From Candidatus Iainarchaeum sp. (GTDB lineage Archaea; Iainarchaeota; Iainarchaeia; JAADDC01), in contig JASUTF010000002.1 in the NCBI GenBank assembly GCA_030445695.1, positions 1 to 32,000 of the forward strand: DNA of 32,000 nt, in the 5' to 3' direction. Shown piece by piece: positions 810 to 31,576 of the stretch; within the stretch, counting starts at the first letter, position 1, and every line of letters begins with the position of its first letter. A program made the translations under genes and the position numbers. Below the pieces are notes generated by a model that had not been told where the DNA came from, did not search any database, and saw only the letters and a list, made by a program, of their open reading frames with translations.

Positions 810-1616
810 TCACTCCAGAAACGCCACGCCAAACGACCCGTAGCCGAGACGCGCTCCAATCGCGGGATCCACGCTGCAAACGACCACACGTTCACAGTTC
901 TCCCTTATCTCGCTTGCCATTCTATCGGCGTACTCGTTCCGCCCCAGAACGCCGGCCCAGACCTCTTTTTTACCCCTTATCAGATCCGCGAACTCCTGCA
1001 CGACTCGTTCCTGTCCCCTGACCGTTTTCCACAAATGGAACACGCCGTCCTTCACCACAAAGATGGGGTTAAGGCGCAGAAACTTTCCGATCTTGCCCAC
1101 AACGTTCGGCAACCTTCCGGAGCGGGCTGCCGCTTCCATATCGGCGACCACAAGGTATATTCTCACCCGATTAACGAGTGCTCTCAACTTTTGAAGGGCA
1201 TCTCCGATTGGGACCCCCTTCTCTGCCATCTCTTTCGCCCTTGCCACGAGTATTCCGGCACCTATGCTCCCTGTCAGCGAGTCCAGTACGTGTACCTCAA
1301 AGCCCTTCTTGGCGAGCATCTTCGCAGCGATCTCTGCCGACTTGAAGGTGCCGCTGAGCTTCGAGCTGATTGTGATGGCGAGTATGGGGAGGTCATTACC
1401 AAGGGACTCAAAGGCACGCATCCACTCCTTGACAGACGGTGCAGCAGTCCTTGCCCGTATCCCCTTTCTGGTGATGTCCAGCAGGGTATCCACAGTGAAA
1501 TCTACCTTGTCCTTCATGTCAACTATTCCGGCATAGACGTGCACAGGGACGAAGGGTATGTCCCATTCGGGCGGAAAATCGGCCGTGGAGTCGGTAATTA
1601 TGCGAAAACTTACCAT
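810..1616 (-). CDS. DegV family fatty-acid-binding protein (FakB-like), divergent paralog
   Basis: 268 aa. It has the DegV pattern IITDSTADF, ISSKLSGTFKSAE and ARSGRLP. The usual TSQPS motif is TAAPS here. There is a 7-nt overlap with the upstream DAK2 gene. Confidence 0.85.
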   Translation of the reverse strand: MVSFRIITDSTADFPPEWDIPFVPVHVYAGIVDMKDKVDFTVDTLLDITRKGIRARTAAPSVKEWMRAFESLGNDLPILAITISSKLSGTFKSAEIAAKMLAKKGFEVHVLDSLTGSIGAGILVARAKEMAEKGVPIGDALQKLRALVNRVRIYLVVADMEAAARSGRLPNVVGKIGKFLRLNPIFVVKDGVFHLWKTVRGQERVVQEFADLIRGKKEVWAGVLGRNEYADRMASEIRENCERVVVCSVDPAIGARLGYGSFGVAFLE

Positions 1617-2491
1617 ATCTGATCAATCCTCTCCTGGACGATCTGACCGAAAGGCAGGAGGCGCTCCTTTACCTTCTCCGGATCTGTGCTGTGGATGTGC
1701 ACCTTCACCTTTCCGTGGCCTCCCACCACCACGATGGAGTCGCCGAGGTCCGCTATGGCGCCCCTTATCTCGTCGGCGGATGTGCCGTTGTTGGTCTCAA
1801 TCATGAAGTTCGTACAGTACAGTGCAGGACCGCCTCTTGACGTTTCGCGCTCGGCACGCATGCCACGGACACGGTATCCCTGAACATCGACGCCCAGGGC
1901 GTGCACAAATCCCTCAACGATGAGCGTGAATCCGTATGCACCGGAGTCGATGATCTTTGGCTTACCGAGCTTCTTCAGCATCTCCGGTGTCTTTTCCAGC
2001 GCCGAAAGAGCCGCCTGGTACGTGTGGTGGAGTATCTCCGGAACGGAGTTATACTGCCGGGCGAGCCGCTGGGCCGCCTCCGCGGTCTCACGCATCACCG
2101 TAAGTATGGTCCCCTCAACGGGGTTTGCCACCGCCTGATACGCCCAGTTCTTACCCTCGCCAAAGGCAGCCGCTACCTTCGTCCTGTCCAGCGCCGCCGC
2201 ATCGCCAATACCTTCCCGGAAGCCCCAGAAGAACTGGGAAAGGATGACCCCGGAGTTTCCGCGGGCACTCTCCAGGGCAGCATCGGCGACTGCCTCTGCA
2301 ACTTCACCGGCGTGTTCGCTGTCCACGTCCTTTACTGCTTCCCATATGCCCTTCATGGTGTTGTACATGTTCGTCCCGGTGTCCCCGTCTGCCACGGGGT
2401 AGACGTTTATGGCGTTTATGAACTCCATTTCCTTCTCTATGAGGTCCGTTGCAAGCTTGATGCCTTCTTTGAGGTGTTTTCCGTTCATCAT
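1610..2491 (-). CDS. DAK2-domain kinase, FakA/YloV-like (N-terminal and central domains only)
   Basis: 293 aa with ADGDTGTNM, ARGNSGVILSQF, VDSGAYGF-like IIDSGAYGFTLIVEG and KVKVHIHSTDP. It is about half the length of bacterial FakA, with no C-terminal domain. The start overlaps the stop of the plsY paralog (ATGA-type overlap). Confidence 0.8.
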   Translation of the reverse strand: MMNGKHLKEGIKLATDLIEKEMEFINAINVYPVADGDTGTNMYNTMKGIWEAVKDVDSEHAGEVAEAVADAALESARGNSGVILSQFFWGFREGIGDAAALDRTKVAAAFGEGKNWAYQAVANPVEGTILTVMRETAEAAQRLARQYNSVPEILHHTYQAALSALEKTPEMLKKLGKPKIIDSGAYGFTLIVEGFVHALGVDVQGYRVRGMRAERETSRGGPALYCTNFMIETNNGTSADEIRGAIADLGDSIVVVGGHGKVKVHIHSTDPEKVKERLLPFGQIVQERIDQIW

Positions 2492-3078
2492 CCCTTTCCA
2501 CCCCAGTAATGCTTTGGCAGTTCGCCCCTCACCAGCAGTTCTGCCTTTTCACGGTAACGCAGCCAGACAGGTATGAGTGCGAGCACAAGGGCCTCCGGAA
2601 CGCTGCCGAACAGCACGTAGTAGATCGCAGGTGTAAAAATATGGCCGAGCATTGCCCCCACGGCAATATAACCGCTCACTGCGTATCCTACGGCCCAGAG
2701 GGCTGCCCAAATTACTGCGAACTTCCAGTCGAGGTAGAGCGCGGACGCGAGCATGACCGCGATGCCCCTTCCGCCCCGGAAACGCGTCCAAACTGGATAG
2801 TTATGGCCCAGCACGATGAAGAACGGGGCGAGCCACAGCGCGGAAGGGAAGTAGTTCTGCACGATCCACAGCGCCAGGATCGCCTTGAGGACATCAAGAA
2901 CCACGACGGCGACAAAGAGTATCTTTGAACCGGTGGCCCTGTACGTGTTGAGTGCCCCGACGTTTCTGCTGCCGACTTCCCAGATGTTCTTGCCGGTGGC
3001 CAGCTTCACCGCAATGTACGCCGTGGGAATGGACCCCAGCAGATACGATATCAGAGCTGCCGCCGCGTACATGTTCAC
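2488..3078 (-). CDS. PlsY-like membrane protein (divergent glycerol-3-phosphate acyltransferase paralog)
   Basis: 196 aa and polytopic. It has LLGSIP, GSRNVGALNTYR (a degenerate GSGNxGATN) and LGHNYPVWTRFRGGRG. The start is either GTG at 3078 (4-nt overlap with the upstream gene) or ATG at 3072. Confidence 0.65.
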   Translation of the reverse strand: MNMYAAAALISYLLGSIPTAYIAVKLATGKNIWEVGSRNVGALNTYRATGSKILFVAVVVLDVLKAILALWIVQNYFPSALWLAPFFIVLGHNYPVWTRFRGGRGIAVMLASALYLDWKFAVIWAALWAVGYAVSGYIAVGAMLGHIFTPAIYYVLFGSVPEALVLALIPVWLRYREKAELLVRGELPKHYWGGKG

Positions 3079-3710
3079 ACCTTGTCCATTGTTATGGAAC
3101 GCTTTCCTTTGTGGGAAAACCGCTGTTCTTCGAGTTTGCCCTGTAGCATGAGCACGATATTATCGCGATGGCTGTAGAGCACGGCAAGGGCGGCAAACGT
3201 CACGTATGTGGTCATAAGCGGGTCTGCGATGAGGGCGTGGAGCGGGATCGCCGTCACAATGGTCACGATGTTGGCGAGGCCCGTCATCTGCGTCAGAAGC
3301 ACCACCACGAACCACGTCGTGATCATGACGGGGAGCGGGCCCCACGTGCCTGTGGCCGTAACGAGGGCGAGGTAACCGCCCGTGATCGTGGCGAATCCCT
3401 TTCCGCCCCTGAACTTCAGGAAGATGGAGAATACAGCACCGATAATGGCAAACATCGCCGCAAGAAGGGCGTAGTGGATTCCAGCATATGCATGCGCGAG
3501 GTATGCCGGCACGAATCCCTTCAACAGATCCAGGAGCATGACGAGGACTCCATAGCCCATGCCGAGGTTGCGGGCGACGTTGGCACCGCCGATGTTGCCG
3601 CTGCCCCTCTTTGTGATATCAATGCCCTTCGCTCTACCCACTAAGTAGCCCCAGGGTATCGAGCCGCTGATGTACCCGGCAAGGGCCCATATCACCGCAT
3701 TCACGTCCAT
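3075..3710 (-). CDS. plsY: PlsY, acyl-phosphate:glycerol-3-phosphate acyltransferase homolog
   Basis: 211 aa and polytopic, with ISGSIPWGY, GSGNIGGANVAR, FLKFRGGKGFAT and YSHRDNI. A TATA-like box at about 3738-3747 (minus strand TTTTTATAAG) and a GGAG lie upstream. Confidence 0.8.
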   Translation of the reverse strand: MDVNAVIWALAGYISGSIPWGYLVGRAKGIDITKRGSGNIGGANVARNLGMGYGVLVMLLDLLKGFVPAYLAHAYAGIHYALLAAMFAIIGAVFSIFLKFRGGKGFATITGGYLALVTATGTWGPLPVMITTWFVVVLLTQMTGLANIVTIVTAIPLHALIADPLMTTYVTFAALAVLYSHRDNIVLMLQGKLEEQRFSHKGKRSITMDKV

Positions 3711-3776
3711 CTTAACCGATCTCCGTAGGAAAACAGCTTATAAAAATGTTAAAGTTGGGGTTGGACGATCGCCGAA

Positions 3777-5113: not shown

Positions 5114-6355
5114 ATGGAGGAGGCTGCACGACGTCTCATCGAGTCCATGCCCGAAAAACTACGAAAAGAGCACGAGAAGATTATTTCTGCGTTGAAGGAC
5201 GCCGTAGCGGAGGGCAAAAGCATCGTTGTCTTTGCAGACACGGACGCAGACGGCGCGTCGGCGGAGGCGTGGCGCATAATCGCCAAGAAACTAGGAGCAA
5301 GGGACGAAAACATAGAAGTGCGCCACGTTGACCGAAGCAACGTGAAGTTCGACCGCGACGCCTTCTATATAGTCCACGACATCACGCTCCTGCCCGCACA
5401 CCTGCAGAACGTGGCGGCGGGCGCGAAGATAGTGAACATCGACCACCACGGTCCAAGATTGGGCGAAGACGAAAGTTACGACACTGTTCTGAACCACCCA
5501 GCAGTTGTGGCGGTTGCCAACCCCTTTGCTACTGAAGTTGATAGCCCTGGCAAGACCAAAATGAGCAGGGAAGATAGTTCCCGCCTTTATGCTTTCAATC
5601 CCTCCGCCCAGCTCGTTCACATTGCCCATCGCGTCGGTGCAAATGACATGATATACAAACTTGCGGCCATTGGCATCGTTGGGGACAGGGCGCACCAATA
5701 CTCCGATGTGGCGAGAGAGTTCGCGGAAGCGGTGGCAAGGAAAACGAGCGCCACGATTGAGGACCTCGCAAAGTTGGCGGGACTCTTCGAGCTACAAGAG
5801 AACTTCCCTGGAAAGGTGACCGCCGAGGAGATAAAGGCGGATATACTTGCAGGGCTGCGGGAAAATGACCTCAAGAGCATACCGCGTAGCAAAAAGCTCA
5901 GGGAATTGCTGGAGAAGAAGGAGAAGGTGCTCGAGAAGTATCTGGAAAGGGTGAAACGCGGAGAGTACGAAAAGGAAGAATTGGAGGTCAATGGCAAGCC
6001 CGTGCGTATTATTCTAATTCACGTGGATGACGATGACGCAAAGGAGGTGCAGAAGATAAAATCCGACTTGGGTTCAGCACTGCTCGACAAGTTTTCGAAA
6101 GATCCAACCCCAACCGTTGTTCTTGCGGGCCAGTGGGAGCCGGGAGACGTTGTAAACTACCGCATCGGCGTGAACGGAGCGGGCCAGGATATTGGGTTGC
6201 ACGCCGGAGAAATCGCAAGGACACTCTCATCAAGGTTCGAACTTCCCGGCGGCGGACACGCAGCGGTTGGTGGTTCAAAAATCCCGCACAGCGAGAAAGA
6301 ACGGGCAATGGAGCACATAAAGGACGTTTTGAAAAGCATCTACGGGCAACACTAA
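5114..6355 (+). CDS. DHH/DHHA1 family phosphoesterase (archaeal RecJ/NrnA-like)
   Basis: 413 aa with FADTDADGAS, NIDHHGP, GIVGDRA and GGGHAAVGG. A TATA-like TTTCATTAAAAG at 5081-5092 lies about 27 nt upstream of the ATG, so the transcript is probably leaderless. Confidence 0.75.
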   Translation: MEEAARRLIESMPEKLRKEHEKIISALKDAVAEGKSIVVFADTDADGASAEAWRIIAKKLGARDENIEVRHVDRSNVKFDRDAFYIVHDITLLPAHLQNVAAGAKIVNIDHHGPRLGEDESYDTVLNHPAVVAVANPFATEVDSPGKTKMSREDSSRLYAFNPSAQLVHIAHRVGANDMIYKLAAIGIVGDRAHQYSDVAREFAEAVARKTSATIEDLAKLAGLFELQENFPGKVTAEEIKADILAGLRENDLKSIPRSKKLRELLEKKEKVLEKYLERVKRGEYEKEELEVNGKPVRIILIHVDDDDAKEVQKIKSDLGSALLDKFSKDPTPTVVLAGQWEPGDVVNYRIGVNGAGQDIGLHAGEIARTLSSRFELPGGGHAAVGGSKIPHSEKERAMEHIKDVLKSIYGQH

Positions 6356-6381
6356 AAAAGGTTCCTCTCTTTTTCTTCTGC

Positions 6382-7422
6382 ATGGAGATCCCGGGGAACC
6401 TGAAGCGCGCGATCCGGACGTTCCGCGACAGGTTGGACGACGGCCTTTACCACGTGGAGCATGACATTGACATGGATGGATTCGCATCGGGCATTATAAC
6501 CACGGTGGCCCTTCGGCGAATGGGGTTCGATGCACACCCCTACGCCACCGAAAGGGATAAGTGCTTCGTCCCTGAGAAAGGAGCGCTCGTTTTTACGGAC
6601 ATTGCACTTGATGGCGAGCCCGTGGAGATAGTGCAGGGCGCGAGCAAATCGGGAAGAAACGTTTACGCAATCGACCACCACCCGTGGCGGAAAGACGTCG
6701 AGAAAAAACTGCATGCGTACGTGAACCCGCACTTCACGGACGTTCCAAGTCCGTCACAATGGAATACGGGCTTTCTCGCGTATCTGACGTTCAGGGAGCT
6801 TGTTTCGGACTACGACTGGCTCGCAGCGATCTCCATATACACAGATCACTGTATAGCACCCTGGAACGAGTTCTTAATCCAGCGATTTGGATACGATAAA
6901 GTAAAACGGGCAGGGGATCTGCTATCGGCATACATTGCAGTAATTGAAGACCTTTCAGAACTTGATTACATCTTGCTCAACGATATCCACAGCTTAAACG
7001 ATGTTCTGAGCCGATCCGAGTTCATAGACGCAGAAAACAAGTTCGAGGGAACTGTAAAGAAATACGTTGAAGACCCGAAGGAGCAGGCAGTCATCTGGGA
7101 TGAGAGGAGAAAAATTATAGTTCGGGTAACGGAGGAGAAGTACAGGCAGATAAACTCCATCGTTTCTACGCGCGTCTCGACGCTGCCCGAGTACAGGGAC
7201 TGGATTGTAATAGTACTTGGAATGGACAGGAACGGTACGTTGAAAGGTTCCTTCCGCTGCCAGGAGTGGGAAAAGAGGGGCATTCACTTGGGCGAACTCG
7301 CCAAACGCATTGCGGTCACGCTGGGTGGAGAAGGGGGCGGCCACCCCATGGCAGCTGGCATGCGAATCCCCAACGGTAATCTCAACTCTGTCCTTTCCGT
7401 GATCAACGAGGTGATAAAATGA
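6382..7422 (+). CDS. DHH/DHHA1 family phosphoesterase, second paralog
   Basis: The ATG at 6382 gives MEIPGNLKRAIRTF...HDIDMDGFASG, AIDHHPW and GGEGGGHPMAAG. The track ORF starting at 6133 overlaps the previous gene, and that upstream part is Arg-rich and unlike real coding sequence. Confidence 0.75.
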   Translation: MEIPGNLKRAIRTFRDRLDDGLYHVEHDIDMDGFASGIITTVALRRMGFDAHPYATERDKCFVPEKGALVFTDIALDGEPVEIVQGASKSGRNVYAIDHHPWRKDVEKKLHAYVNPHFTDVPSPSQWNTGFLAYLTFRELVSDYDWLAAISIYTDHCIAPWNEFLIQRFGYDKVKRAGDLLSAYIAVIEDLSELDYILLNDIHSLNDVLSRSEFIDAENKFEGTVKKYVEDPKEQAVIWDERRKIIVRVTEEKYRQINSIVSTRVSTLPEYRDWIVIVLGMDRNGTLKGSFRCQEWEKRGIHLGELAKRIAVTLGGEGGGHPMAAGMRIPNGNLNSVLSVINEVIK

Positions 7423-11450: not shown

Positions 11451-12374
11451 TTAACCCTGTGGCCTCTTCCCGCCGATCCCCGTGACGAGCTTGAAGACGG
11501 CGGCAACCACGAATGCAACCCACTCTGCAAAGAGCGTTATGATCGAGTAGAGCATCGCGCCGACAAACGCGTAAATGTAGTGCACGTTCTCGAAAACAGA
11601 GCGGAAAACAGGCATCTCGCGAATCTGCCGCTCTATGGCCGACCTCATAACATTCTCGTCCGGGGACTTAATGCTCAATGCGAGCGCCTCCCGGATGCCC
11701 TTCTTTATGCCCTCATACTGCTCAAGATACTGGTTGATGAGCTCCTGTTGCTGCTCCGGCGAGAGGGAATCCCAGTTGGGCACCGAACTCTTGACGCTTT
11801 CTATGATCTTTTCACGCTCCTCGGGAGTTATGCCCTCGGGAATGATCTGGTTCACGTCCAGAATGTTTTTCTGCGAACCCGCACCGGTGAGTGCCAGTTC
11901 AACTATGCGGTCCACGAGGAGGGGCTGGAGGGTGCCAGCCATTGTGGAACCGTGATATATGAGAACAACGAGCACTAGGGCAAAACCCAAACTCTTGGGC
12001 GACGAAACGGTGTGCCAGACCCCCATCTTGCACGGATCATCGCTGGAGACGGGCAGGATACCCCCTGCAACGGTCGCCACGATAAAGGCAGAGACAATTG
12101 GATCCAGACCCAGCAGCACCGCGCCCAGGACCGCAACGGTCAGTTCAACAGCCCAGTAGATGACCCTCTGGCGTCTGCTGTCGGAGGACCAGCGGAGAAG
12201 GAAGACGGACAGCAGAACAGCAGTTAGGGGAATAACAAGACCGGCTGCGGACCGGAGGAGCATCATATCGGGAATTACAATGGATTCAGGTGAAAACGAC
12301 ACGCCAGTGACAAGTATCTCCGCAAGGACCGTGAGAACCACCGCAGCAACCGCCAGTACGTATCGATCGCCCAT
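11451..12374 (-). CDS. Hypothetical polytopic membrane protein with a central soluble insert
   Basis: 307 aa with several hydrophobic helices and a charged middle region (ITPEEREKIIESVKSSVPNWDSLSPEQQQELINQYLEQYEG). It starts 6 nt after the map stop. Confidence 0.6.
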   Translation of the reverse strand: MGDRYVLAVAAVVLTVLAEILVTGVSFSPESIVIPDMMLLRSAAGLVIPLTAVLLSVFLLRWSSDSRRQRVIYWAVELTVAVLGAVLLGLDPIVSAFIVATVAGGILPVSSDDPCKMGVWHTVSSPKSLGFALVLVVLIYHGSTMAGTLQPLLVDRIVELALTGAGSQKNILDVNQIIPEGITPEEREKIIESVKSSVPNWDSLSPEQQQELINQYLEQYEGIKKGIREALALSIKSPDENVMRSAIERQIREMPVFRSVFENVHYIYAFVGAMLYSIITLFAEWVAFVVAAVFKLVTGIGGKRPQG

Positions 12375-12380
12375 TCTCCC

Positions 12381-13277
12381 TCACCAACTTACAAGGTCGA
12401 AGACATCTATAAGGATTTCCGCCCCGTCGGGCTCCACAACCACCGTTGTCTCGAACTGGCCCACTGCCGCGCCCTTCTGCTCCATCAGAATCGGATACTG
12501 GTGCAGGGACCCCAGCTTCGCCAGTTCGAACAGTGCCATCCGCCCCTGCAGTCCAAACTCCCGCTCGATCCACTTCTGGGCAAAGGGAAGCGGGCCATAT
12601 TCTTTCTCTATGTGGGAAAGAACCTTCTTGGCCAGGGGAGTCCTCGCCCTCGCACGCTGGAGGGAGAATATCGTGACGCTGGGACCGTTGTTCACGTAAC
12701 CCCTGCCGTCCGTCATAAACGGCTCAATGGCTATCTGCATGCCCTCTTCTATGACTGCTCGGCCCTCAGGAACGTTAGGAATGAAAAGACCTGCGTGCAA
12801 GTTGTATCTTTTAATTTCATGGCCCCCCAGGTTCGATATGGGCCTGACACCGTACTTCTTCGCCACGTCTGATATTACCTTCCCGATCTCAGATACCTGC
12901 ATGCCGGGCCGTATTGCGTGTACTGCCTCGCTCAGCGCCTCGTACGCTGCCCTTGCAACCGAGACGTAGAAATCGTCGAGCACGTAGGTGAAAGCGGCGT
13001 CGGATATCCAGCCGTCTACGTGGGCGCCCGCGTCAATCTTCACCAGCTTTCCGCTCGAGAAGTCCGCCGTCTCCGTGTCCGTGGGTGAGAAATGGGCGGC
13101 CACGTGGTCCACTCCAACGTTACACGGGAATGCGTTCCTTGCCTCCTCCAGAATGGCCTGCTCCACGGAGTCCGCCACTGCCAGACCCGAACGCTCTCCA
13201 GAATCAATCTTCCTGAAAGCATTCCGCAGGGCCCTCTCCAGAACTTTACCAGATCTGCGGAGCGCATCCGGATCCAT
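12381..13277 (-). CDS. map: Methionine aminopeptidase, type 2 (archaeal)
   Basis: 298 aa with CNVGVDHVAAHFSP, KIDAGAHVDGWISDAAFT, GHEIKRYNLHAG and QIAIEPF. Confidence 0.9.
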   Translation of the reverse strand: MDPDALRRSGKVLERALRNAFRKIDSGERSGLAVADSVEQAILEEARNAFPCNVGVDHVAAHFSPTDTETADFSSGKLVKIDAGAHVDGWISDAAFTYVLDDFYVSVARAAYEALSEAVHAIRPGMQVSEIGKVISDVAKKYGVRPISNLGGHEIKRYNLHAGLFIPNVPEGRAVIEEGMQIAIEPFMTDGRGYVNNGPSVTIFSLQRARARTPLAKKVLSHIEKEYGPLPFAQKWIEREFGLQGRMALFELAKLGSLHQYPILMEQKGAAVGQFETTVVVEPDGAEILIDVFDLVSW

Positions 13278-13283
13278 TCCGCA

Positions 13284-14111
13284 TCACTCGACAAAAAGCA
13301 TACTGACCGCTCCCGGGCCGGCGTGCACCACGATAACGGGGCTAAGGAGCACCTTCTCCTCTACTTTGATACCCCTATAGTTCAAGTGTTCCTCCAGTGC
13401 CTTTCCGTCGTCCCCTCCAGGCGCGTAGGCCATTAAAACGGACTCTGAGCCCGCGAGAGCAGCCATCTCCGCCCATAGTTTGTTCTTGCGAACCGTGTTC
13501 TCAAGATCCACCCTGCCCTCACGGATCGTCAGTATCGGGCGGATACCCACTATCTTGGCCAGTGTCGCCTTGAACGGGTCGAGACGTCCCCCTGCAACAA
13601 GGTAGTCAAGCGTGGGGACTGCAAAGTATATTCTGATCCTGCTCCTCAGCGCCTCAAGGGCGGGTATCACTTCCTCAATGGTTTTCCCTTCGTCCCGCAG
13701 GCGCAGGGCCTCACGGACGAGAATGCCGATGCCCGCGGACACGGACAGCGAGTCGAAAACGTGGAGATTTACTCCCTTCTTTTTCATGAGGTTTGAAGCG
13801 ATAAGGGCTGCGTTGTACAGGCCGGAGAGCCGGGATGATAACGTTATGTAAAGCACGTCTCCTTCCATCCCCTCCACGGCGGACATGATCTGCTTTGGCG
13901 ACGGCTGACTCGTCTTAACCTTGCCCGGCTTCATCTCGCGGATATAACTGAGCACGTCTTCCTTTGATATGGTTCCCGGATACGTGTACTCCTCTTCGCC
14001 TATGAAAACATTGATGGGAACCTTGAGCACGTCCTCCGGCGTTCCGCTGAGCAGGTCGGCACCGCCGTCTACCACGATTTCAAACGCCACGTTCCAATAT
14101 GGCACGATCAT
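13284..14111 (-). CDS. DegV family fatty-acid-binding protein (FakB-like), canonical paralog
   Basis: 275 aa with KTSQPSPKQ, LSSRLSGLYNAA and DYLVAGGRL. It stops 6 nt before the map start. Confidence 0.85.
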   Translation of the reverse strand: MIVPYWNVAFEIVVDGGADLLSGTPEDVLKVPINVFIGEEEYTYPGTISKEDVLSYIREMKPGKVKTSQPSPKQIMSAVEGMEGDVLYITLSSRLSGLYNAALIASNLMKKKGVNLHVFDSLSVSAGIGILVREALRLRDEGKTIEEVIPALEALRSRIRIYFAVPTLDYLVAGGRLDPFKATLAKIVGIRPILTIREGRVDLENTVRKNKLWAEMAALAGSESVLMAYAPGGDDGKALEEHLNYRGIKVEEKVLLSPVIVVHAGPGAVSMLFVE

Positions 14112-16480: not shown

Positions 16481-17053
16481 TTATAGCACACCCCTTGCGT
16501 CGATCAGCACTGGTAGCCCGCGCAGCAGTGAGAATAGCACGAGATATAGTGAATACCAGAAGGAGAATTGCCAGGAGAAGGGAACAACCCCATAGCGCAT
16601 AAGCGTGAGCACAAGGAAGAAAAGCACCTTGGAAACGCCATAGAGCCCGCGGACAAAACGGCTCTTCACGAAGGTCCTTCCCCACCAGGAGCGCATCATA
16701 CCGTAAACGGAAACGTTCTTCCCTGCAGCGCGGCCCCGAATGGCATCGGTAAGGGCAGCACGGGAGAGAACGATGATCGGGGCCCAAGCCGGGACGTAGT
16801 CGATCGCAAGGAACATCAGCCAGAGAACGATTTCCGTCATTCTATCTCCGACCACGTCCAGAAGCGATCCAATAACCGTCTCGCACTTGTAGCGCCTCGC
16901 CACGTACCCGTCCAGCGAATCCATGGCGAACGCGATTATAAGGAGGATAACTGAAAGCCACCACGGCCCCCACGCGTAGTATACAAGAACAGCAACCACA
17001 AAAACGAGGACCGTCCTGATAATCGTGATCCAGTCGGCAGGAGTCACGGTCAA
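16481..17053 (-). CDS. CDP-alcohol phosphatidyltransferase family protein
   Basis: 190 aa membrane protein with DSLDGYVARRYKCETVIGSLLDVVGD, which matches DGxxARx8Gx3Dx3D. Confidence 0.8.
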   Translation of the reverse strand: MTVTPADWITIIRTVLVFVVAVLVYYAWGPWWLSVILLIIAFAMDSLDGYVARRYKCETVIGSLLDVVGDRMTEIVLWLMFLAIDYVPAWAPIIVLSRAALTDAIRGRAAGKNVSVYGMMRSWWGRTFVKSRFVRGLYGVSKVLFFLVLTLMRYGVVPFSWQFSFWYSLYLVLFSLLRGLPVLIDARGVL

Positions 17054-20372: not shown

Positions 20373-21542
20373 TCACAGTCTCTCCAGAATCTGCTGAATA
20401 ACCCGTTCCGGCTCTGTTGTGGACAAAGAAACAGCATTCGGGTGGCCCCAGTACTCTGCAGCGCCCAAATTCTTTACCATTGAGAGCAAATCTCCCTTCC
20501 CGCGCATTGTGACGGTATATCTGAAGCTCTTCTCTGCATCCGTGACAATTACGATGTCGTAGCCCCTTTCATCCATCAAGCACGAGGCAATCTTGCCCTT
20601 GTGTGGGTAGTTTGGCGTATATGAAAGTTTCACGATGAGAGCCCGCTTCCCGTTGATTTCCTTCTCTTCCATCTCCGCGTTCTCCAATGCCATTTCTACT
20701 TTCATTCTGAACAGTTCGTAATATGTCTTCCAGAGGTCCGTTTCCAGTATCTGTTCGGCCAGACGGAGGTCAGCACGAATTGCCTGTGACATCTCCAGCG
20801 CCAATGCTTTCTTCCTGTCCTCTTCGCCCCATTCAATCACCGAACTCTTATCTCCCGCGGCAGCAATCCTCCCCCACTCTGGCTTCTCCACCCACGACTT
20901 CACAAGGTACGAAACGAGCGTTGCCGTGTTGTATTTGGACAGCTCCGGTGAGTGAAGAGCAGGATTAATCACCACACCGAAGCCGTGCTGTTTTTCAGCG
21001 TAGTGGTGGTCCACAACGAAGGTCGGGCCGTAACTCGAAAGCAAGAAAAGGCCGGGGCGATCTCTCCAGTCACTACCCACGTCCAGAAGGAGATAAAGAG
21101 GTGCATCTGACAGCCAGATTTGGGCCTCACGAAGCGTCCAATGCGAAATCGTTGAAAACGCTCTGTCCGAAAGTCCGAGTGCCTTCTTTATCAGGAGCGC
21201 CGCGATGATACCGTCCGCGTCGTTGTCGTAAAAGACCTGCGGCGTTTCACCCGTTACCTTGAGAAACGCCAGTTCCTTCCAGAGCACTTCAAAGTTGCCG
21301 CGGAGGAAAGCAATCTCGTCGGGCAGTTCCAAATCCACCTTCAGGCCAGATAGAAAACGTTCCTTCACCTTCGGGCGGACGCTTTCGCTCAGCGAGAAGA
21401 GTTTGCCGTCCCGCAACTCCACACTGTCCCCAGTCCTGAACCGTTCTCTAGAAACAGCCCTGTAATACTTCTCGCCATCAAAAATCACGTACTCCGTCCC
21501 TTCCCTCCCGCGGAAAGATGATGTGATAATACCACGAGGCAT
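20373..21542 (-). CDS. DHH-family protein with a degenerate DHHA1 motif and an N-terminal extension (third DHH paralog)
   Basis: 389 aa with FYDNDADGIIAA, LLLDVG, VVDHHYAE and AAAGDKS. The GGGH position reads YWGHPNAV. About 90 aa of extra N-terminal sequence are present. Confidence 0.6.
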   Translation of the reverse strand: MPRGIITSSFRGREGTEYVIFDGEKYYRAVSRERFRTGDSVELRDGKLFSLSESVRPKVKERFLSGLKVDLELPDEIAFLRGNFEVLWKELAFLKVTGETPQVFYDNDADGIIAALLIKKALGLSDRAFSTISHWTLREAQIWLSDAPLYLLLDVGSDWRDRPGLFLLSSYGPTFVVDHHYAEKQHGFGVVINPALHSPELSKYNTATLVSYLVKSWVEKPEWGRIAAAGDKSSVIEWGEEDRKKALALEMSQAIRADLRLAEQILETDLWKTYYELFRMKVEMALENAEMEEKEINGKRALIVKLSYTPNYPHKGKIASCLMDERGYDIVIVTDAEKSFRYTVTMRGKGDLLSMVKNLGAAEYWGHPNAVSLSTTEPERVIQQILERL

Positions 21543-22267: not shown

Positions 22268-22280
22268 CGTGGGTAGAAAC

Positions 22281-22949
22281 ATGGACGTTCAGACGTTGTG
22301 GACGATCACCGGACTAGCAGCCGTCGACATGGTAAATCCCTGCACCCTTGCAGTGCAGGTACTCCTACTATCTGCTCTTGTGTTAACGAAGGGCAGAAGA
22401 GACGCAATTATCGGCGGAATCCTATTCACGGTAACGATATACATAATGTATCTGCTCTACGGGCTTGGCGTGCTTCAGCTCATTTACACGCTGGGAATTC
22501 AAGACCTCTTGCGTGCGATTCTCAAGATTCTGATACTCGTGATGGCAGTTCTCGAAATCATGGCTTTCTTCAAGTACCGTCCCGGCTTCATATCCCTTGA
22601 AATGCCCATGTCCTTCCGACCCATCGCTCAAAAAGCTCTGAAGTCCGTTGAGAACCCGTGGATGGCCGTACCCGTCGCCGTCCTCTGCTCCGTACTTTTG
22701 CTCCCCTGCTCCTCCGGGCCATACCTTTCCGCAATCATCCTACTTGCAAACACAGCAGTTGAAAAAATCTTCTACCTTCTTTACTATAACATGATATTCA
22801 TCCTTCCGATGATTGCAATAACGGCAATCGTTGGTTTTGGAACAAAACCGGAGGCGGTGATGGAATGGAGAAAAAGACACATAAGGGAACTGCACCTGAT
22901 CGCGGGAATACTGCTGCTGGCGGTGTTCGCTATGCTATCTATGGAGTAA
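22281..22949 (+). CDS. CcdA/DsbD-type transmembrane thiol:disulfide electron-transfer protein
   Basis: Polytopic membrane protein with two membrane-embedded Cys motifs, VNPCTLAV and LLPCSSGPYL. The start is taken at the ATG at 22281; the track ORF begins at GTG 22269. Confidence 0.7.
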   Translation: MDVQTLWTITGLAAVDMVNPCTLAVQVLLLSALVLTKGRRDAIIGGILFTVTIYIMYLLYGLGVLQLIYTLGIQDLLRAILKILILVMAVLEIMAFFKYRPGFISLEMPMSFRPIAQKALKSVENPWMAVPVAVLCSVLLLPCSSGPYLSAIILLANTAVEKIFYLLYYNMIFILPMIAITAIVGFGTKPEAVMEWRKRHIRELHLIAGILLLAVFAMLSME

Positions 22950-23431
22950 TTTTCTCAATCATATTGCTGGTAGCGGCCCTTGCGTGGTATTCCGGCCAGA
23001 CAGGCGGCGGGAAAGATATGCCACAGGAGGGCAACCACTTGGGCGTTCTCGTATACTCTCCAACCTGCCCGCACTGCCACTCACTGATGAAATACCTAGA
23101 CGAGAAGTATCCGGACGCTCCGATACTGAGAACAACGGACGGCTCCAAGATAAAGGAGTACCTAAAGGAAGCGGGCGTTTCATGGGACGGTGGCGTCCCA
23201 ATCATGGCGGTGCGCGTGGATGGAAACGTCTTCGTGCTTTCTGGCTTTCCGTCGGAGAACCAGGACGTGAACGGCTACTTCATGGGCAGAGAAAAGGAAC
23301 TGTCACTCTGTAAAGGAATGCGAGGAACGCCGTACCCTAACGAGCAAAACTACCTCTTCTGCATACTTCCGGACGGAAAAATACTGGGAAACAAGTACGT
23401 AGTGGACTGGGTGCTCTCTAAGATCGGATAA
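22865..23431 (+). CDS. Membrane-anchored thioredoxin-like protein (CPHC)
   Basis: 188 aa with a basic N-terminus, one transmembrane helix (VRYAIYGVIFSIILLVAALAWY) and VLVYSPTCPHCHSL. The only plausible start, ATG 22865, overlaps the ccdA-like gene by 85 nt in another frame. Confidence 0.65.
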   Translation: MEKKTHKGTAPDRGNTAAGGVRYAIYGVIFSIILLVAALAWYSGQTGGGKDMPQEGNHLGVLVYSPTCPHCHSLMKYLDEKYPDAPILRTTDGSKIKEYLKEAGVSWDGGVPIMAVRVDGNVFVLSGFPSENQDVNGYFMGREKELSLCKGMRGTPYPNEQNYLFCILPDGKILGNKYVVDWVLSKIG

Positions 23432-26395: not shown

Positions 26396-27127
26396 ATGGA
26401 CTTCAGCTTTGACGTGCCACAGGAGAAGGACCCGAAGAAGGAAGCACTGCTAAAATACTCAAAAATCGTGTTCATCGGCTGCTCGAGGAACGAAGAAAAA
26501 GATGCACACACCGTCCCAAAGTTCATGAAGGAGCACGGGTACGAGATCGCCTGCGTTAACCCCTTCGCAGAAGAGAACATTCTCGACGCGCCCACGTTCA
26601 AAGATATTGCAGACGTTCCAGACGAGTTCCTGGAAATCATCGATGTATTCCGCCCCTCTGAGGAGATACCGAAGATAGTGGACAGAATCATAGAAACGGG
26701 CAAGATTCCGAAGGTATTCTGGATGCAGGACGGGATAAGAAGTGAATACGCCCGCCAGAAACTCGAGCCATTGGGAGTCACGGTCATCGAGGACTCCTGC
26801 ATCATGCGCAAGCATATGGAGTTGTTCGTGAGCAAAGACCCCGTTTATGAGGCGATTCTGCGGTTTGCACGTACATATGCGAAGGCACAGGGCTTTGTTC
26901 TGAATCCAGACCCCGAGAAATTGGACGAAGTTATCTCAGGCCTTGCATACAACCAGAAGACGTATGGCTTCCGCTACTGTCCCTGCCGACCGATTACTGG
27001 AGATCTGGAGGAAGACAGAAAGAAGATCTGCCCGTGCTTCTGTCACCGCGACGAGATAAAACGCGACGGCCACTGCCACTGTGGCTTGTTCTGGGATCCG
27101 GAAGCTGCAAAGAGGTTGCAGAAGTAA
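26396..27127 (+). CDS. Fusion protein: CoA-binding domain + ferredoxin:thioredoxin-reductase catalytic-subunit-like domain
   Basis: The N-terminal part, [33 protein letters not shown]...[13 protein letters not shown]...FWMQDGI, is of the CoA_binding/YccU type. The C-terminal part, [39 protein letters not shown], has the CPC...CPC...CHC pattern of the FTR catalytic subunit. Confidence 0.75.
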
Positions 27128-27210: not shown

Positions 27211-28437
27211 ATGGTATTTGAGCAGGGTATAAAGCGGTTGGAGCACACGGCAGAGAAGATAGGACTTGAGGACTGGATTCTGGAGGCACTGAAGCGTCCG
27301 AAACGTGTTGTTAAGGTCTCCTTCCCCGTCAAGATGGACAACGGAACCATAAAGACGTTCACGGGCTATCGCGTTCTCTACAACGACGCACGCGGCCCAG
27401 GCAAGGGTGGAATCCGCTATCACCCCAACGTGAACGAGGATGAGGTCACGGCACTGGCGTTCTGGATGACCATTAAGAACGCTGTAGTGGATCTGCCCTA
27501 CGGCGGTGCAAAGGGCGGAATTACTGTTAACCCCAAGGAACTATCGCCAACGGAACTCGAACGCCTCTCCCGCGCATACATAAGGGCAATAGCGGATGTC
27601 ATCGGCGACGAGAGGGACATCCCCGCACCTGACGTCTACACGAACCCCAAGATAATGGCGTGGATGGTGGACGAGTACGAGACCATCGTCCGCAAGCACG
27701 AGAACGGTGTGATAACGGGCAAGCCCCTCTCCATCGGCGGTTCCAAGGGAAGATTTACTGCAACGTCCTGGGGCGGATTCTTCGTCATGGAGGAGGCCTT
27801 GAAGACCTACGGCATCGACGGAAAGACCGTGGCAATCCAGGGTATAGGCAACGTGGGTGGTGGGCTGGCACAGATACTTTACGACAAGGGCTACAAGGTC
27901 GTGGCTATCTCCGACTCCAAGGGCGGCATATACAACCCGGACGGTCTGAACATTCCCGCAGTGATGGAGCACAAGAAGAAGACGGGCCGCGTCTCCGGAT
28001 TCCCAGGCGCAAAGGACATAACCAACGAAGAATTACTAGAATTGGACGTGGATGTTCTCGTCCCCGCAGCCATAGAGAATGTCATAACGAAGGAGAACGC
28101 GGACAGAATAAAGGCAAAGATTGTTCTGGAACTGGCAAACGGCCCGACAACCGCAGAGGCGGACGAGATACTCAAGAAGAAGGGCATCGTCGTCGTCCCA
28201 GACGTCCTGGCCAACGCGGGCGGAGTGACTGTATCCTACTTCGAGTGGGTGCAGAACCGCATGGGCTTCTACTGGACGGAGGAAGAGGTGCTCGAACGCC
28301 TGAGGAACAAGATGGTCTCAGCGTTCCATGACGTCCACAAGAAAGCAGAAGAGCTCGACGACGATTTGAGAACAGGAGCCTACGCAGTGGCTGTGGAAAG
28401 GGTTGCGGAGGCCATGCGCGACCGCTACGGCCACTGA
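27211..28437 (+). CDS. gdhA: Glutamate dehydrogenase
   Basis: The ATG at 27211 follows a strong Shine-Dalgarno sequence and gives [11 protein letters not shown]...[16 protein letters not shown]...LPYGGAKGG...GIGNVGG (408 aa). The upstream 59 codons of the track ORF cross the intergenic promoter. Confidence 0.9.
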
Positions 28438-29483
28438 ACCCATTCTTCAACCTCTTCTTTGCATGCATTGAATTCTACCCTCTCGTCACACGGGCAGTAG
28501 AACGGGATGAAATCGTCCGAAGAGTGCCAGTAGATCGTGCCGGAATAGCACTCACAGTTTATAGAAGAAGAACCCAATTCAATTAAGGGCGATTCTGCGT
28601 TACTGCAGATGTATGAATAACTGTCTACCACGAGTGTCACATTCGAGAAGTTAGCGTAAATCGCAGGTCCCAAAGTGGGCCGGAGAATCCGGATTCGTTT
28701 CAGCATAATGCCATCTGAAAAACTAATGACAAGCGGTGCTGCAGCGTCAGCCCAGAAGTCCTCTCCATTCTTCGTCATTTGCTTATCAAGATACGCGATG
28801 GATACGCCGTCTAGCCGGCAGGAATCAGAATTGTACAAAACAACTCCAGATCCCGTAGGGTCTGTCGGTACTGCTACCTCGTGAAGAGTAACGTCGTAAG
28901 AGTTCTCTATGCGTATGGCAGACCCGCCATAACCATGAAATCCGACCACAAGGTTGTGTAGAACGACGCGTGAGACACCATCCAAATGAATGGAGCTTGC
29001 CCAGCCAGCATAATCCCACACCTGAACATTAATGTCCTCCAAAGACACACCAGTGGACGAGTTTATCTCAATTGCCGGTGAACTGTTCGGGTTGAAATGC
29101 GTTGCATATATAAAGTGTCCGTTTCCGTCAAAGACAATCCACCGTTTATACGGTACGCGCAACCCCGATACTTTAATGCAAGAGCCGTTCTGTCTACCAA
29201 TATCCCGCGTTAAAGTAACATAGACGTTGATACCCATCGCATTAGCAATTCTATTGGCCTCCAGAAGAGCGTTGACGCACGATTCGCAAGAGTTACATTC
29301 AAGATGGCCTATATTTTGAATGTTAGGGTGTTGGGATCCGTGTTCTTTCGCGCTCCTGGGCTGGATGTTCACTAATGTAGAATCGACGCGCACCAGCGTA
29401 TTTGAAAACTGAACAATCGCCACAACAACAACTAATAGAATCAAAAAGATTACAGCAAGTTCCTGTAGCTTTGGGCGATACAT
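28425..29483 (-). CDS. Membrane-anchored, Cys-rich right-handed beta-helix repeat protein (NosD/pectate-lyase-like fold)
   Basis: 352 aa with an N-terminal transmembrane helix, then [18 protein letters not shown]. Repeated V/I-x-L/I-x-N/D-type beta-helix rungs follow ([36 protein letters not shown]). It converges on and overlaps the gdhA 3' end by 13 nt. Confidence 0.55.
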
Positions 29484-29896: not shown

Positions 29897-30574
29897 ATGG
29901 TTTTGAGTGACAAAGACAAAGAGGGTGTTAAGAAGCTCCTCGAGCCGGTTCAGAGGGACGTGAAGATCCTGTTCTTCAGGGACGACTCTTCGCGTTGCCA
30001 GTACTGCGATGTTATAGAGGAACTGCTCGAAGATATTCATTCTGTCAACGAGCACGTCATCTACGAGGTTCTGGACGCGAACAGCGACAAGGCAAAGGAA
30101 TACGGCATTGAGGGTGGCCCCGTCCTCCTCTTTGAGGAGAGGCCGAACATCCGCTACAGGGGAATTCCTTCAGGTCACGAGTTCCCAGCATTCCTTGATG
30201 ACATCGTTACAATCGCAAAGGGATCCGTGGATCTGAATGCAAACGCCGCGAAGAAGATCGCAAGGATACAGGAGCCGCTCCACGTGCTGATCTTCGTCAC
30301 ACCGACCTGTCCATACTGTCCACTGGCAGTTAGGGCTGCACACCACTTCGCATACGCCAACGACAAGATACTGGCAGAGATGGTAGAGGCCATTGAGTGG
30401 AGTGACCTGGCAGACCAGTACCGCGTCTCCGCGGTGCCCAAGATCGTTGTGCTCGACCCCGAAACGGGCAACGAACTGCTGGAGTGGGAAGGTGCCGTCC
30501 CTGAGGAAGTGTTCGCAGACTACCTGCTCCATGCGCTTGAGCACAAGCACGGGGCCCACGACCATCACCACTGA
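29897..30574 (+). CDS. Protein disulfide oxidoreductase (glutaredoxin-like; two thioredoxin folds)
   Basis: 225 aa with two CxxC sites (SRCQYCD and PTCPYCP) and a His-rich C-terminal tail, HKHGAHDHHH. A GAGGTGA Shine-Dalgarno sequence lies upstream. Confidence 0.8.
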   Translation: MVLSDKDKEGVKKLLEPVQRDVKILFFRDDSSRCQYCDVIEELLEDIHSVNEHVIYEVLDANSDKAKEYGIEGGPVLLFEERPNIRYRGIPSGHEFPAFLDDIVTIAKGSVDLNANAAKKIARIQEPLHVLIFVTPTCPYCPLAVRAAHHFAYANDKILAEMVEAIEWSDLADQYRVSAVPKIVVLDPETGNELLEWEGAVPEEVFADYLLHALEHKHGAHDHHH

Positions 30575-30586
30575 GGAGGTGGTGGC

Positions 30587-31576
30587 ATGCCGTCCCCCTT
30601 CTCTTTTTCCCTCGAATCACCGGTGCTATCGAAGGCAGAGCTGAAGCCGGAATATGACGTGGTCATCGTCGGCGGAGGACCTGCAGGCCTCGCAACAGCC
30701 ATCTACGCAGCCCGTGCCATGCTCCGAACCGCTGTAATCTCCAAGGATTTTGGAGGGCAGGTTTTAGACGCACACTCCGTGGAGAACTATCCCGGATTCA
30801 TCAAAACAACGGGGCAGGAACTCATGAACGCGTTCAAAGAACACGCGGAGCATTTCGGTGCTGAACTCATTCAAGCAACGGTAAAGGACATCTGGAGGGA
30901 AGGCGATCACTTCGTCGTCGACACAGACAGAGGAAGCACAAAGGCACCGGCCATCATATACGCAACGGGCTCAACGCACAGGAAACTGGGCGTTCCGGGC
31001 GAGGAAGAGTTCCTCGGGAAGGGGGTTTCTTACTGTGCCATCTGCGACGCCGCTCTGTTTCAGGGTAAGGTCGTTGCTGTCGTTGGCGGGGGCAACATGG
31101 CGTTCATGGACGCAGACCTGCTCACTCAGCACGCCTCCAAAGTTTATATCATCCACCGTCGCAACGAGTTCCGTGCAGAGCCCCTCTGGGTTGAACGCCT
31201 GAAGAAGAACCCGAAGGTGGAGTTCATAACGCCCTACGTTGTCGAGCGCATCGAGGGCACAGACAAGGTCGAGAAGCTCATCATAAAGAACAGAGAGACG
31301 GGAGAGACGAAGGAACTGCCCGTAGACGGTGTGTTCATCGACATCGGCATGATCCCGCAGACAGAACTGGCAAAAAGGGTCGGTGTGGAACTGAACGAGC
31401 GTGGATACATCATAGTCAGGGAAGACCAGAGCACAAACGTTTCGGGCTTCTTCGCGGCGGGAGACGTGACCACGGGCATGAACGGCGTGCATCAGATCGT
31501 CACCGCAGCGGCGAAGGGAGCCATAGCAGCTCTGTCCGCCTACGACTACCTGAAGGGCAAAGGCTTCGTGAAGTAA
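30587..31576 (+). CDS. trxB: Thioredoxin reductase (low-Mr flavoprotein disulfide reductase)
   Basis: 329 aa with YDVVIVGGGPAGLATAIYAARA, the redox-active CAICDA, VVGGGNMA and FAAGDV. A GGAGGTGG Shine-Dalgarno sequence lies 6 nt upstream. Confidence 0.85.
   Translation: MPSPFSFSLESPVLSKAELKPEYDVVIVGGGPAGLATAIYAARAMLRTAVISKDFGGQVLDAHSVENYPGFIKTTGQELMNAFKEHAEHFGAELIQATVKDIWREGDHFVVDTDRGSTKAPAIIYATGSTHRKLGVPGEEEFLGKGVSYCAICDAALFQGKVVAVVGGGNMAFMDADLLTQHASKVYIIHRRNEFRAEPLWVERLKKNPKVEFITPYVVERIEGTDKVEKLIIKNRETGETKELPVDGVFIDIGMIPQTELAKRVGVELNERGYIIVREDQSTNVSGFFAAGDVTTGMNGVHQIVTAAAKGAIAALSAYDYLKGKGFVK

Follow-up and report, generated by a model that had tools for sequence, protein, structure and literature searches.

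The bacterial pathway that couples fatty acid kinase (Fak) to the acyltransferase PlsY is already known, and PlsY homologues have reportedly been on record in archaea since about 2017. Bacterial PlsY is supplied mainly by PlsX, from acyl-acyl carrier protein (acyl-ACP); to our knowledge, archaea lack acyl-ACP. Here we analysed a 32,000-nucleotide (nt) stretch of archaeal contig JASUTF010000002.1 (the window; all coordinates are window positions), in which four adjacent genes encode two PlsY paralogues (PlsY-1 and PlsY-2), a short form of the kinase FakA and a DegV protein of the kind that serves as its fatty-acid-binding partner, FakB. Judged by sequence and linkage, this operon probably specifies a self-contained pathway by which a DPANN (Diapherotrites) archaeon would turn free fatty acid into an ester-linked acyl-glycerol-phosphate.

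The closest described kinases are the FakA/FakB systems of Staphylococcus aureus and Streptococcus suis (PDB 7W7H, 7RM7, 4X9X). The archaeal kinase shares with them the Dak2 Asn/Asp/Asp/Thr/Asn/Asp set and the Cys-His-His middle domain, and here too a separate DegV partner carries a Thr/Ser/Arg carboxylate site; adjacency of fakA and degV is also common in bacteria. It differs in its archaeal host, in sharing an operon with PlsY, in an Arg that takes the place of the carboxyl-binding His in the window DegV, and in having no C-terminal DegV-like domain, whereas the 74 complete bacterial homologues are about 540-600 aa long. The same combination of N-terminal and linker/middle domains was engineered in S. 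aureus as FakA_NL, which is active in vitro (PMC9136124); the archaeal truncation, by contrast, is natural, is conserved in two clades (283-293 aa and 312-314 aa), and in its DPANN form stops before the terminal helix that tightens dimerization of the S. aureus protein. A short FakA with a separate DegV also resembles dihydroxyacetone kinase, DhaL-DhaK, which pairs a Dak2-fold nucleotide subunit with a separate EDD-fold substrate subunit, but there the substrate differs, and our kinase has the FakA middle domain and matches the DhaL models weakly (E ~1e-7).

Both PlsY paralogues share the seven-helix fold, motif 1 (SxN...N..R), motif 2 (GG[KR]G) and length of Aquifex aeolicus PlsY (PDB 5XJ5-5XJ8); unlike it, they are substituted at the active site, stand in tandem, belong to different subfamilies and keep a conserved order. 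Homologues of PlsY and PlsC from Marine Group II/III, Asgard and DPANN bins were read as transfers from bacteria, and the reports of archaeal PlsY, having found no PlsX or PlsB, left acyl donor and function open (PMC6431249, PMC9385802). Our proteins belong to the same family and come from similar uncultured archaea; what sets them apart from these 'orphan' enzymes is that they are physically linked to a Fak system, from which acyl-phosphate would come. In the full-text literature, which leaves subscription journals mostly outside its coverage, we found no description of FakA or DegV in archaea, of an operonic PlsY link, of natural loss of the FakA C-terminal domain (FakA_C) or of paired PlsY variants. 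The view of the initial annotation, made from the sequence alone, that no such module had been experimentally described in archaea stands within that coverage, archaeal PlsY by itself having been reported (PMC6431249).

A tightly packed operon with an archaeal promoter-like element

The genes plsY-1, plsY-2, fakA and degV follow one another on the minus strand at 810-3710 (Table 1) and overlap as first annotated: the junctions, read directly off the sequence, are GTGA (4 nt), ATGA (4 nt) and ATGGTAA (7 nt). The first overlap, between plsY-1 and plsY-2, hinges on the GTG start of plsY-2; the GenBank copy of the identical protein has 194 aa and takes as its start an ATG 6 nt further on, so that 2 nt separate the two genes. 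The four genes are tightly packed whichever start applies. Downstream, gatC most likely begins at 769, as called on a related contig, and not at 895, and therefore does not overlap degV. All four proteins pass their Pfam thresholds (24.1 bits for PF02660, 27 bits for PF02645), and the peptide motifs that had been picked out by eye are all present in the translations (GSGNIGGANVAR, FRGGKGFAT, YSHRDNI, ADGDTGTNM, ARGNSGVILSQ and KVKVHIHSTDP).

The TATA-like box that the initial annotation placed near 3738-3747 is the string TTTTTATA, 28 nt upstream of the plsY-1 ATG. A TTTT(T)ATA element lies at an equal distance 5' of the first cluster gene in each of eight related archaeal loci (8/8), some of them GC-rich, a setting in which chance would seldom produce such a string. 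The element would likely drive the operon, giving a short-leader or leaderless transcript. With a common strand, overlapping or abutting frames, one upstream promoter element and a conserved order, the cluster has the appearance of a translationally coupled operon. A scan for sigma-70 promoters and intrinsic terminators predicted no coding-strand terminator-like site inside the cluster and a single site on the opposite strand; its models are bacterial and not meaningful for an archaeon, and the scan was set aside.

An archaeal host

The exact proteins of the cluster are deposited in GenBank (MDN5358249-52) under the label 'Candidatus Diapherotrites archaeon', a DPANN lineage, and already bear the submitter names fatty acid kinase, fatty acid kinase fatty-acid-binding subunit and, twice, acyl phosphate:glycerol-3-phosphate acyltransferase. 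Elsewhere in the window, S-adenosylmethionine (SAM) synthetase is of archaeal type (PF01941 589 bits; NF003364 612 bits, above cut-off), aspartyl-tRNA synthetase (AspRS) is of the archaeal non-discriminating type (NF003483 415 bits, above cut-off), and an archaeal-type glutamate dehydrogenase and RecJ-like DHH proteins are also encoded. The four-gene cluster sits between AspRS and GatC on a single contig, with a GC content (0.55-0.58) inside the range of the window. The synteny AspRS - cluster - GatCAB - RuBisCO is retained in a Diapherotrites metagenome-assembled genome (MAG) whose FakA is just 60% identical, and the same gene arrangement was found again in independent assemblies; the closest non-archaeal relatives belong to Bacillota and Chloroflexota. 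Taken together, the archaeal genes of the contig, the GenBank label, the GC content and the conserved synteny leave neither contamination nor recent transfer viable, and bear out the archaeal context first proposed.

PlsY adjoins FakA in archaea and not in the bacterial loci

Linkage of the two enzymes recurs well beyond the window. PlsY adjoins FakA in 10 of 11 informative archaeal loci (the window, L083, L085, L090, L091, L092, L086, L088, L095 and L098), which span DPANN and Heimdallarchaeota; the sole locus with fakA alone is L096, of the Heimdall clade. For a bacterial control we took 80 loci, among the matches listed, from a genome-collection scan with the short-FakA alignment, whose conserved patterns are common to bacteria; no archaeal locus was among those matches. 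None of the 80 has PlsY within 6 kb of fakA, and a separate DegV adjoins fakA in 50. The archaeal linkage therefore goes beyond chance.

Denoting plsY-1, plsY-2, fakA and degV as Y1, Y2, A and B, and a single plsY as Y, the orders found across lineages are Y1-Y2-A-B, Y2-A-B, A-Y-B and A-B-Y, a variety that points to selection on co-expression and not to mere inheritance of one arrangement. The full order Y1-Y2-A-B is conserved in L083, L085, L090 and L095, that is, in relatives down to 38-60% identity, as the gene-neighbourhood survey suggested with the initial annotation bears out. In L095 (a DPANN contig labelled Nanoarchaeota), genes for a CarS-like protein (CDP-archaeol synthase family) and a CDP-alcohol phosphatidyltransferase stand back-to-back with plsY (Y1-type), plsY (Y2-type), fakA and degV (L095:2878-7273), with archaeal ribosomal protein genes S19e and L31e nearby; the L091 module abuts an S13-S4-S11-RpoD operon. 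L086 and L088 share a cluster of genes for a short FakA (313 aa), a DegV and a canonical PlsY (239 aa), next to genes of RPA-like and folliculin-like type. Both loci are labelled Heimdallarchaeota and the L088 protein Bathyarchaeia, a label that the synteny common to the two suggests is a misclassification.

A naturally short FakA

The kinase scores 146.6 bits against Dak2 and 65.3 bits against FakA-like_M (Pfam); its alignment covers positions 3-291 of 530 in the YloV model and residues 10-315 of 554 in S. suis FakA (PDB 7W7H_A, E 3e-50). Across 23 aligned archaeal short FakAs, nine residues never vary: N29, D35, D37, T38, N79, D182, C226, H265 and H267. They correspond to the S. aureus ADP-Mg ligands N32, D38, D40, T41, N82 and D185 and to C240, H282 and H284, positions whose importance is shown by mutagenesis or structure (PMC9136124; PMC10848957). 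In the S. suis structure the Cys-His-His set was read as a zinc site and not as a catalytic triad (PMC10848957); H226, the fourth zinc ligand there, is not conserved in the archaeal kinase. The FakA/YloV signatures claimed for this DAK2 protein thus hold for the N-terminal and middle domains with their nine residues, and not for the C-terminal domain, which is lacking.

Engineered FakA_NL remains active, with a Km for FakB of 0.99 uM as against 0.09 uM for the full protein (about 11-fold, FakB1), the rise being attributed to loss of FakA_C as the FakB-docking domain (PMC9136124). By its domain content, the archaeal short FakA is a natural counterpart of FakA_NL. Shortness is unusual among bacterial homologues: 74 of the 77 that are flanked on their contigs, among the matches listed, have at least 500 aa, and of the three that are shorter, at least one runs into the end of its contig. 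In a rough neighbour-joining tree with bootstrap, the DPANN short FakAs (283-293 aa) form one clade (bootstrap 99); FakAs of 312-314 aa, whose labels read Heimdallarchaeota, Asgard or, probably in error, Bathyarchaeia, make up a clade apart from it, composed of two sub-clades at 100 each with a joining node at 62. The tree does not resolve a common origin of the DPANN and Heimdall forms (backbone support <40%). Nor is the short form universal in DPANN, as L095 carries a full-length 505-aa FakA in the same operon.

Two FakB-type DegV proteins

The operonic DegV passes the family models (PF02645 177.8 bits; TIGR00762 189.7 bits against a cut-off of 99.7) and matches S. aureus FakB2 (4X9X) at E 5e-24. 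In alignment it retains the carboxylate-binding Thr and Ser and the tunnel-entrance Arg (T61, S93 and R170 of S. suis FakB2), the last of which is essential for kinase activity in FakB. This agrees with its original assignment as a fatty-acid-binding DegV protein, apart from an Arg at position 256 in place of His, to which we return below. The idea that this gene might be a detached FakA C-domain was rejected: the protein finds its match in the L095 DegV (E 5e-13), a separate protein, and not in the C-domain of L095 FakA, and is on that ground FakB-type; the tunnel Arg, kept in the operonic DegV and missing from FakA_C, also opposes it.

A second degV lies elsewhere in the window (Table 1), packed head-to-tail with genes for an M24 peptidase (12381-13277) and a 307-aa open reading frame (ORF) without a family match (11451-12374). 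Its product (DegV 186.7 bits; TIGR00762 191.1 bits) is 32% identical to the operonic DegV (BLASTP), has the complete Thr/Ser/His/Arg set in alignment, and is a probable second FakB partner, with a putative link to the operon.

Two PlsY paralogues with complementary active-site changes

PlsY-1 and PlsY-2 score 135.4 and 123.9 bits against PF02660, and PlsY-1 matches PDB 5XJ5 at E 4e-25. In Aquifex PlsY, whose numbering we use throughout, Ser35, Arg45, Lys104 and Asn180 clamp the phosphate of glycerol 3-phosphate (G3P), its 2-OH is held by Ser142 and His177, acyl-phosphate is bound by no side chains other than Thr41 and His92, and Asn37 stabilizes the intermediate; His92 is His in 97.8% of 7,288 homologues, although His92Ala keeps 17% activity in the Aquifex enzyme, and His177 is reported to be indispensable (PMC5700162). 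PlsY-1 keeps Ser35, Asn37, Arg45, Lys104, His177 and Asn180, and has Ala at 41 and 92 and Asn at 142. PlsY-2 keeps Ser35, Asn37, Arg45 and His92, and has Leu at 41, Arg at 104, Ala at 142, Tyr at 177 and Lys at 180. The GG(K/R)G loop is present in both. The description of PlsY-1 as canonical-looking is therefore right as to family and most of the glycerol-phosphate pocket, and fails at His92Ala, Thr41Ala and Ser142Asn; that of PlsY-2 as a divergent paralogue was apt, as it represents a PlsY subfamily of its own, in which the acceptor pocket is altered.

Both residue signatures hold across distant DPANN lineages. A search of 1.84 billion proteins shows, among its best 150 cluster representatives, Ala92 in four alone, which make up the PlsY-1 clade; Ala41 occurs in 21 and is for that reason unremarkable. 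At least 12 orthologues share the residue signature of PlsY-2, and an AlphaFold (AF2) model of PlsY-2 (pLDDT 95.2) has structural matches solely to PlsY (5XJ5-5XJ8, TM-score 0.77-0.83). By neighbour-joining, PlsY-2 joins divergent PlsY-like proteins at 77% bootstrap, some of them labelled Bacteroidota, Ignavibacteriales or Calditrichia in GenBank, and PlsY-1 falls among canonical PlsYs; because they lie in separate subfamilies, the pair does not stem from recent duplication. Pairing and order recur in L083, L085, L090 and, at 38-39% identity, L095, where the first PlsY has Asn at 92 and the second Ser at 177 and Arg at 180. Conserved and complementary changes of this kind argue for two distinct retained functions and not for decay.

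Other archaea carry other complements: the only PlsY gene of L091 (DPANN) is of PlsY-2 type, that of L092 (DPANN) is very divergent, and the Heimdall-type clusters have a canonical PlsY whose single difference is Thr41Ser. We also came upon P0019 (400 aa, on a 9.3-kb JGI contig), in which a deleted PlsY-2 is joined in frame to a complete short FakA. We rejected it as a Rosetta-stone PlsY-FakA fusion; the PlsY-2 part has an internal deletion and motif 1 is missing, so P0019 is probably a product of decay or an assembly or gene-calling artefact.

A proposed route from free fatty acid to acyl-glycerol-phosphate

The family models and the linkage support the interpretation, already put forward in the initial annotation, that the operon encodes a FakA-FakB-PlsY pathway; from the sequences we infer the following enzymatic steps, substrates and physiological role. 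DegV, in the form of either paralogue and in the role of FakB, would draw free fatty acid from the membrane and present its carboxylate. A dimer of the two-domain FakA would phosphorylate it with ATP-Mg to acyl-phosphate, docking in the absence of FakA_C by direct contact of DegV with FakA_N, as DhaK does with DhaL, which is the obvious guess. PlsY-1, PlsY-2 or both, in the membrane, would then move the acyl group onto glycerol phosphate, either G3P or archaeal glycerol 1-phosphate (G1P), and the resulting lysophosphatidate-type lipid could proceed to activation with cytidine diphosphate (CDP) and head-group attachment. The archaeal G1P backbone should be no obstacle, because bacterial PlsY takes G1P as well as G3P (PMC13400652).

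Such a route would account for the linkage. With no PlsX, PlsB or acyl-ACP, Fak would be the sole source of acyl-phosphate in these archaea, which would explain why fakA, degV and plsY share one operon there and not in bacteria. For the same reason the product may be a lysolipid, as the donor normally used in the second acylation is not available where PlsX and ACP are lacking; alternatively, PlsY-2, whose replaced residues are exactly those that bind the 2-OH, may itself carry out a second acylation with acyl-phosphate as donor or favour a different acceptor. The most likely role, in our reading, would be to let an organism of limited lipid synthesis make use of fatty acids that it scavenges.

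A bolder version, which we put forward tentatively and think rather unlikely, is that DPANN archaea have a phospholipid pathway independent of both ACP and coenzyme A (CoA) and run wholly on acyl-phosphate, built from minimal Fak, divided PlsY roles and CarS-like and CDP-alcohol transferases. PlsY-1 would then acylate glycerol phosphate, PlsY-2 would be an analogue of PlsC or an enzyme specific for G1P or archaeal lipids, and the products would enter ester or mixed ester/ether membranes. If this were true, the Heimdallarchaeota Fak-PlsY cassette would be a candidate mechanism for starting bacterial-type lipids.

A Fak system in the PlsY operon gives the hitherto unexplained archaeal PlsY a specific and testable candidate acyl donor, whose input would be free fatty acids, probably scavenged. 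It bears on the lipid divide, in that some archaea might make ester-linked lipids; on membrane acquisition and remodelling in genome-reduced DPANN cells; and, through the Heimdall cluster, on how bacterial-type lipids could have come about in an archaeal lineage, a question of eukaryote origins. Enzymologists gain from it a FakA that is minimal by nature and two PlsY variants whose active-site changes are informative.

Weighing the route against its alternatives

Several observations weigh against the proposed route. No gene for PlsC, G3P dehydrogenase or a source of fatty acids was seen in the 32-kb window, and in the judgement of Coleman et al. a part for archaeal PlsY in membrane synthesis is unlikely (PMC6431249). 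The stricter family models are not reached: against the TIGR00023 equivalog cut-off of 137.2, PlsY-1 falls narrowly short (135.9) and PlsY-2 short (117.7); the kinase has no Pfam match to PF13684, the C-terminal DegV-like FakB-docking domain, and scores 296.1 against 396.1 for TIGR03599 and 193.1 against 975 for NF038248, shortfalls due largely to the absence of half of the model; and the operonic DegV reaches 91.4 of the 350 required by the FakB1 equivalog model. At the active sites, PlsY-1 has lost His92, PlsY-2 has lost His177, Asn180 and Ser142, and the third carboxylate ligand of FakB (H264 in S. suis FakB2) is Arg256 in the window DegV.

This last change is a single-nucleotide polymorphism in degV codon 256, at position 850: CGT (Arg) in the window, CAT (His) in the 99.8%-identical contig L081, with His in every orthologue and in the second paralogue. 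Each allele is found on several public contigs, and the Arg256 allele is real, since the exact protein is in GenBank, on 14 contigs. The operonic degV can also be missing altogether. A metagenome scan yielded only two close relatives, which are informative for DegV loss: in contigs L097 and L098 (FakA 77-79% identical), the run plsY-1, plsY-2, fakA leads, across a gap of about 93 nt, straight to gatC. The absence is a secondary loss in a sister lineage, and the kinase there must therefore use a DegV encoded elsewhere.

The same chemistry might serve another end and not the bulk membrane: the trapping or detoxification of free fatty acids, or the signalling of their presence, the last being what Fak does in S. 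aureus; the end product would then be a lysolipid or a minor lipid species. That no PlsC was seen near the module would fit, as would the enrichment in lysolipids of small-cell candidate phyla radiation (CPR) fractions with PlsY and without PlsX (PMC7242380) and the dispensability of the operonic DegV in close relatives. We nevertheless think this role unlikely: the L095 module stands beside CarS-like and CDP-alcohol transferase genes, which speaks for phospholipid assembly, and detoxification alone hardly explains two conserved PlsY paralogues. The substrates, too, might be others, with DegV and FakA activating, for example, an isoprenoid acid from host lipids and the PlsYs acylating G1P, geranylgeranylglyceryl phosphate (GGGP) or a lyso-archaeal lipid to give hybrid lipids. 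The loss from PlsY-1 of the acyl-phosphate-contacting His, the change in PlsY-2 of each of the three side chains that hold the 2-OH and phosphate of G3P in place, the CarS-like neighbour in L095 and two UbiA-family genes just past the window end would all suit such a scheme. It is distinctly improbable all the same, as the carboxylate-binding residues of DegV and the active site of FakA are of fatty-acid kinase type, the Heimdall-type cluster has a fully canonical PlsY, and G1P is already accepted by canonical PlsY.

Were the genes decaying, non-functional relics of horizontal transfer from bacteria, one could account for the truncated FakA, the active-site substitutions in both PlsYs, the His-to-Arg allele and loss of DegV in relatives, and the decayed P0019 fusion. 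Relics would not, however, be expected to have reading frames that are all intact, FakA catalytic residues invariant in 23 sequences, the same substitutions in orthologues just 38-60% identical, a gene order and promoter element conserved across DPANN lineages, or a PlsY-2 model with pLDDT 95; we regard this as very improbable. The families are all four typical of bacteria, with nearest non-archaeal relatives in Bacillota and Chloroflexota, which might raise the suspicion of bacterial DNA mis-assembled or mis-binned into an archaeal genome. This is hardly credible and already effectively refuted by the position of the genes between archaeal-type AspRS and GatC on a contig that also has archaeal SAM synthetase, by their GC content, by recurrence in independent assemblies, and by other lineages, in which the neighbours of the module are archaeal ribosomal proteins and RNA polymerase subunit D.

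Neighbouring lipid genes and other features of the window

Table 1 Features of the operon and related genes, in window coordinates
Feature	Position	Strand	Product	Family or note
plsY-1 (PlsY-1)	3075-3710	minus	211 aa	PF02660
plsY-2 (PlsY-2)	2488-3078	minus	196 aa with GTG start; 194 aa from ATG at 3072	PF02660
short fakA	1610-2491	minus	293 aa	Dak2 + FakA-like_M
operonic degV	810-1616	minus	268 aa	DegV
second degV	13284-14111	minus	275 aa	DegV
TATA-box-like element TTTTTATA	3739-3746	minus		likely archaeal promoter, as judged from sequence
CDP-alcohol phosphatidyltransferase	16481-17053	minus	190 aa	PF01066

The window also encodes a CDP-alcohol phosphatidyltransferase (PF01066 61.9 bits) that is a candidate for the head-group step downstream of the proposed route; the transferase gene beside the L095 module is of the same family. 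Its best NCBIfam scores are 58.7 bits for bacterial PgsA and 49.2 bits for archaetidylinositol-phosphate synthase, all below the cut-offs, the archaeal serine synthase model included. A local search found no CarS-like gene in the window. About 2.1 kb past the 3' end of the window (L093:9222-10931) lies a tandem pair of divergent genes of the UbiA prenyltransferase family (274 and 291 aa); we considered them as digeranylgeranylglyceryl phosphate (DGGGP) synthase candidates and set this aside, as no curated NCBIfam model identifies them. In the DPANN MAG locus L090, a GDSL-family lipase, a possible source of free fatty acids, is encoded 0.7 kb beyond degV (L090:7392-8054), downstream of it and on the other strand.

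Three ORFs of 352, 226 and 188 aa, at 28425-29483 (minus) and 22269-23431 (plus), have no Pfam match; the 352-aa ORF has no NCBIfam match either and is conserved in related contigs. At 26396-27127 (plus), a CoA-binding domain is fused to a ferredoxin-thioredoxin-reductase catalytic-subunit domain, about 2.8 kb upstream of genes for a thioredoxin-like protein and thioredoxin reductase (29897-31576, plus). Three DHH/DHHA1 (RecJ-like) paralogues fall within 16 kb, at 5114-6355 (plus), about 6380-7422 (plus) and 20373-21542 (minus), and the two in tandem are kept beside AspRS in the 60%-identical relative.

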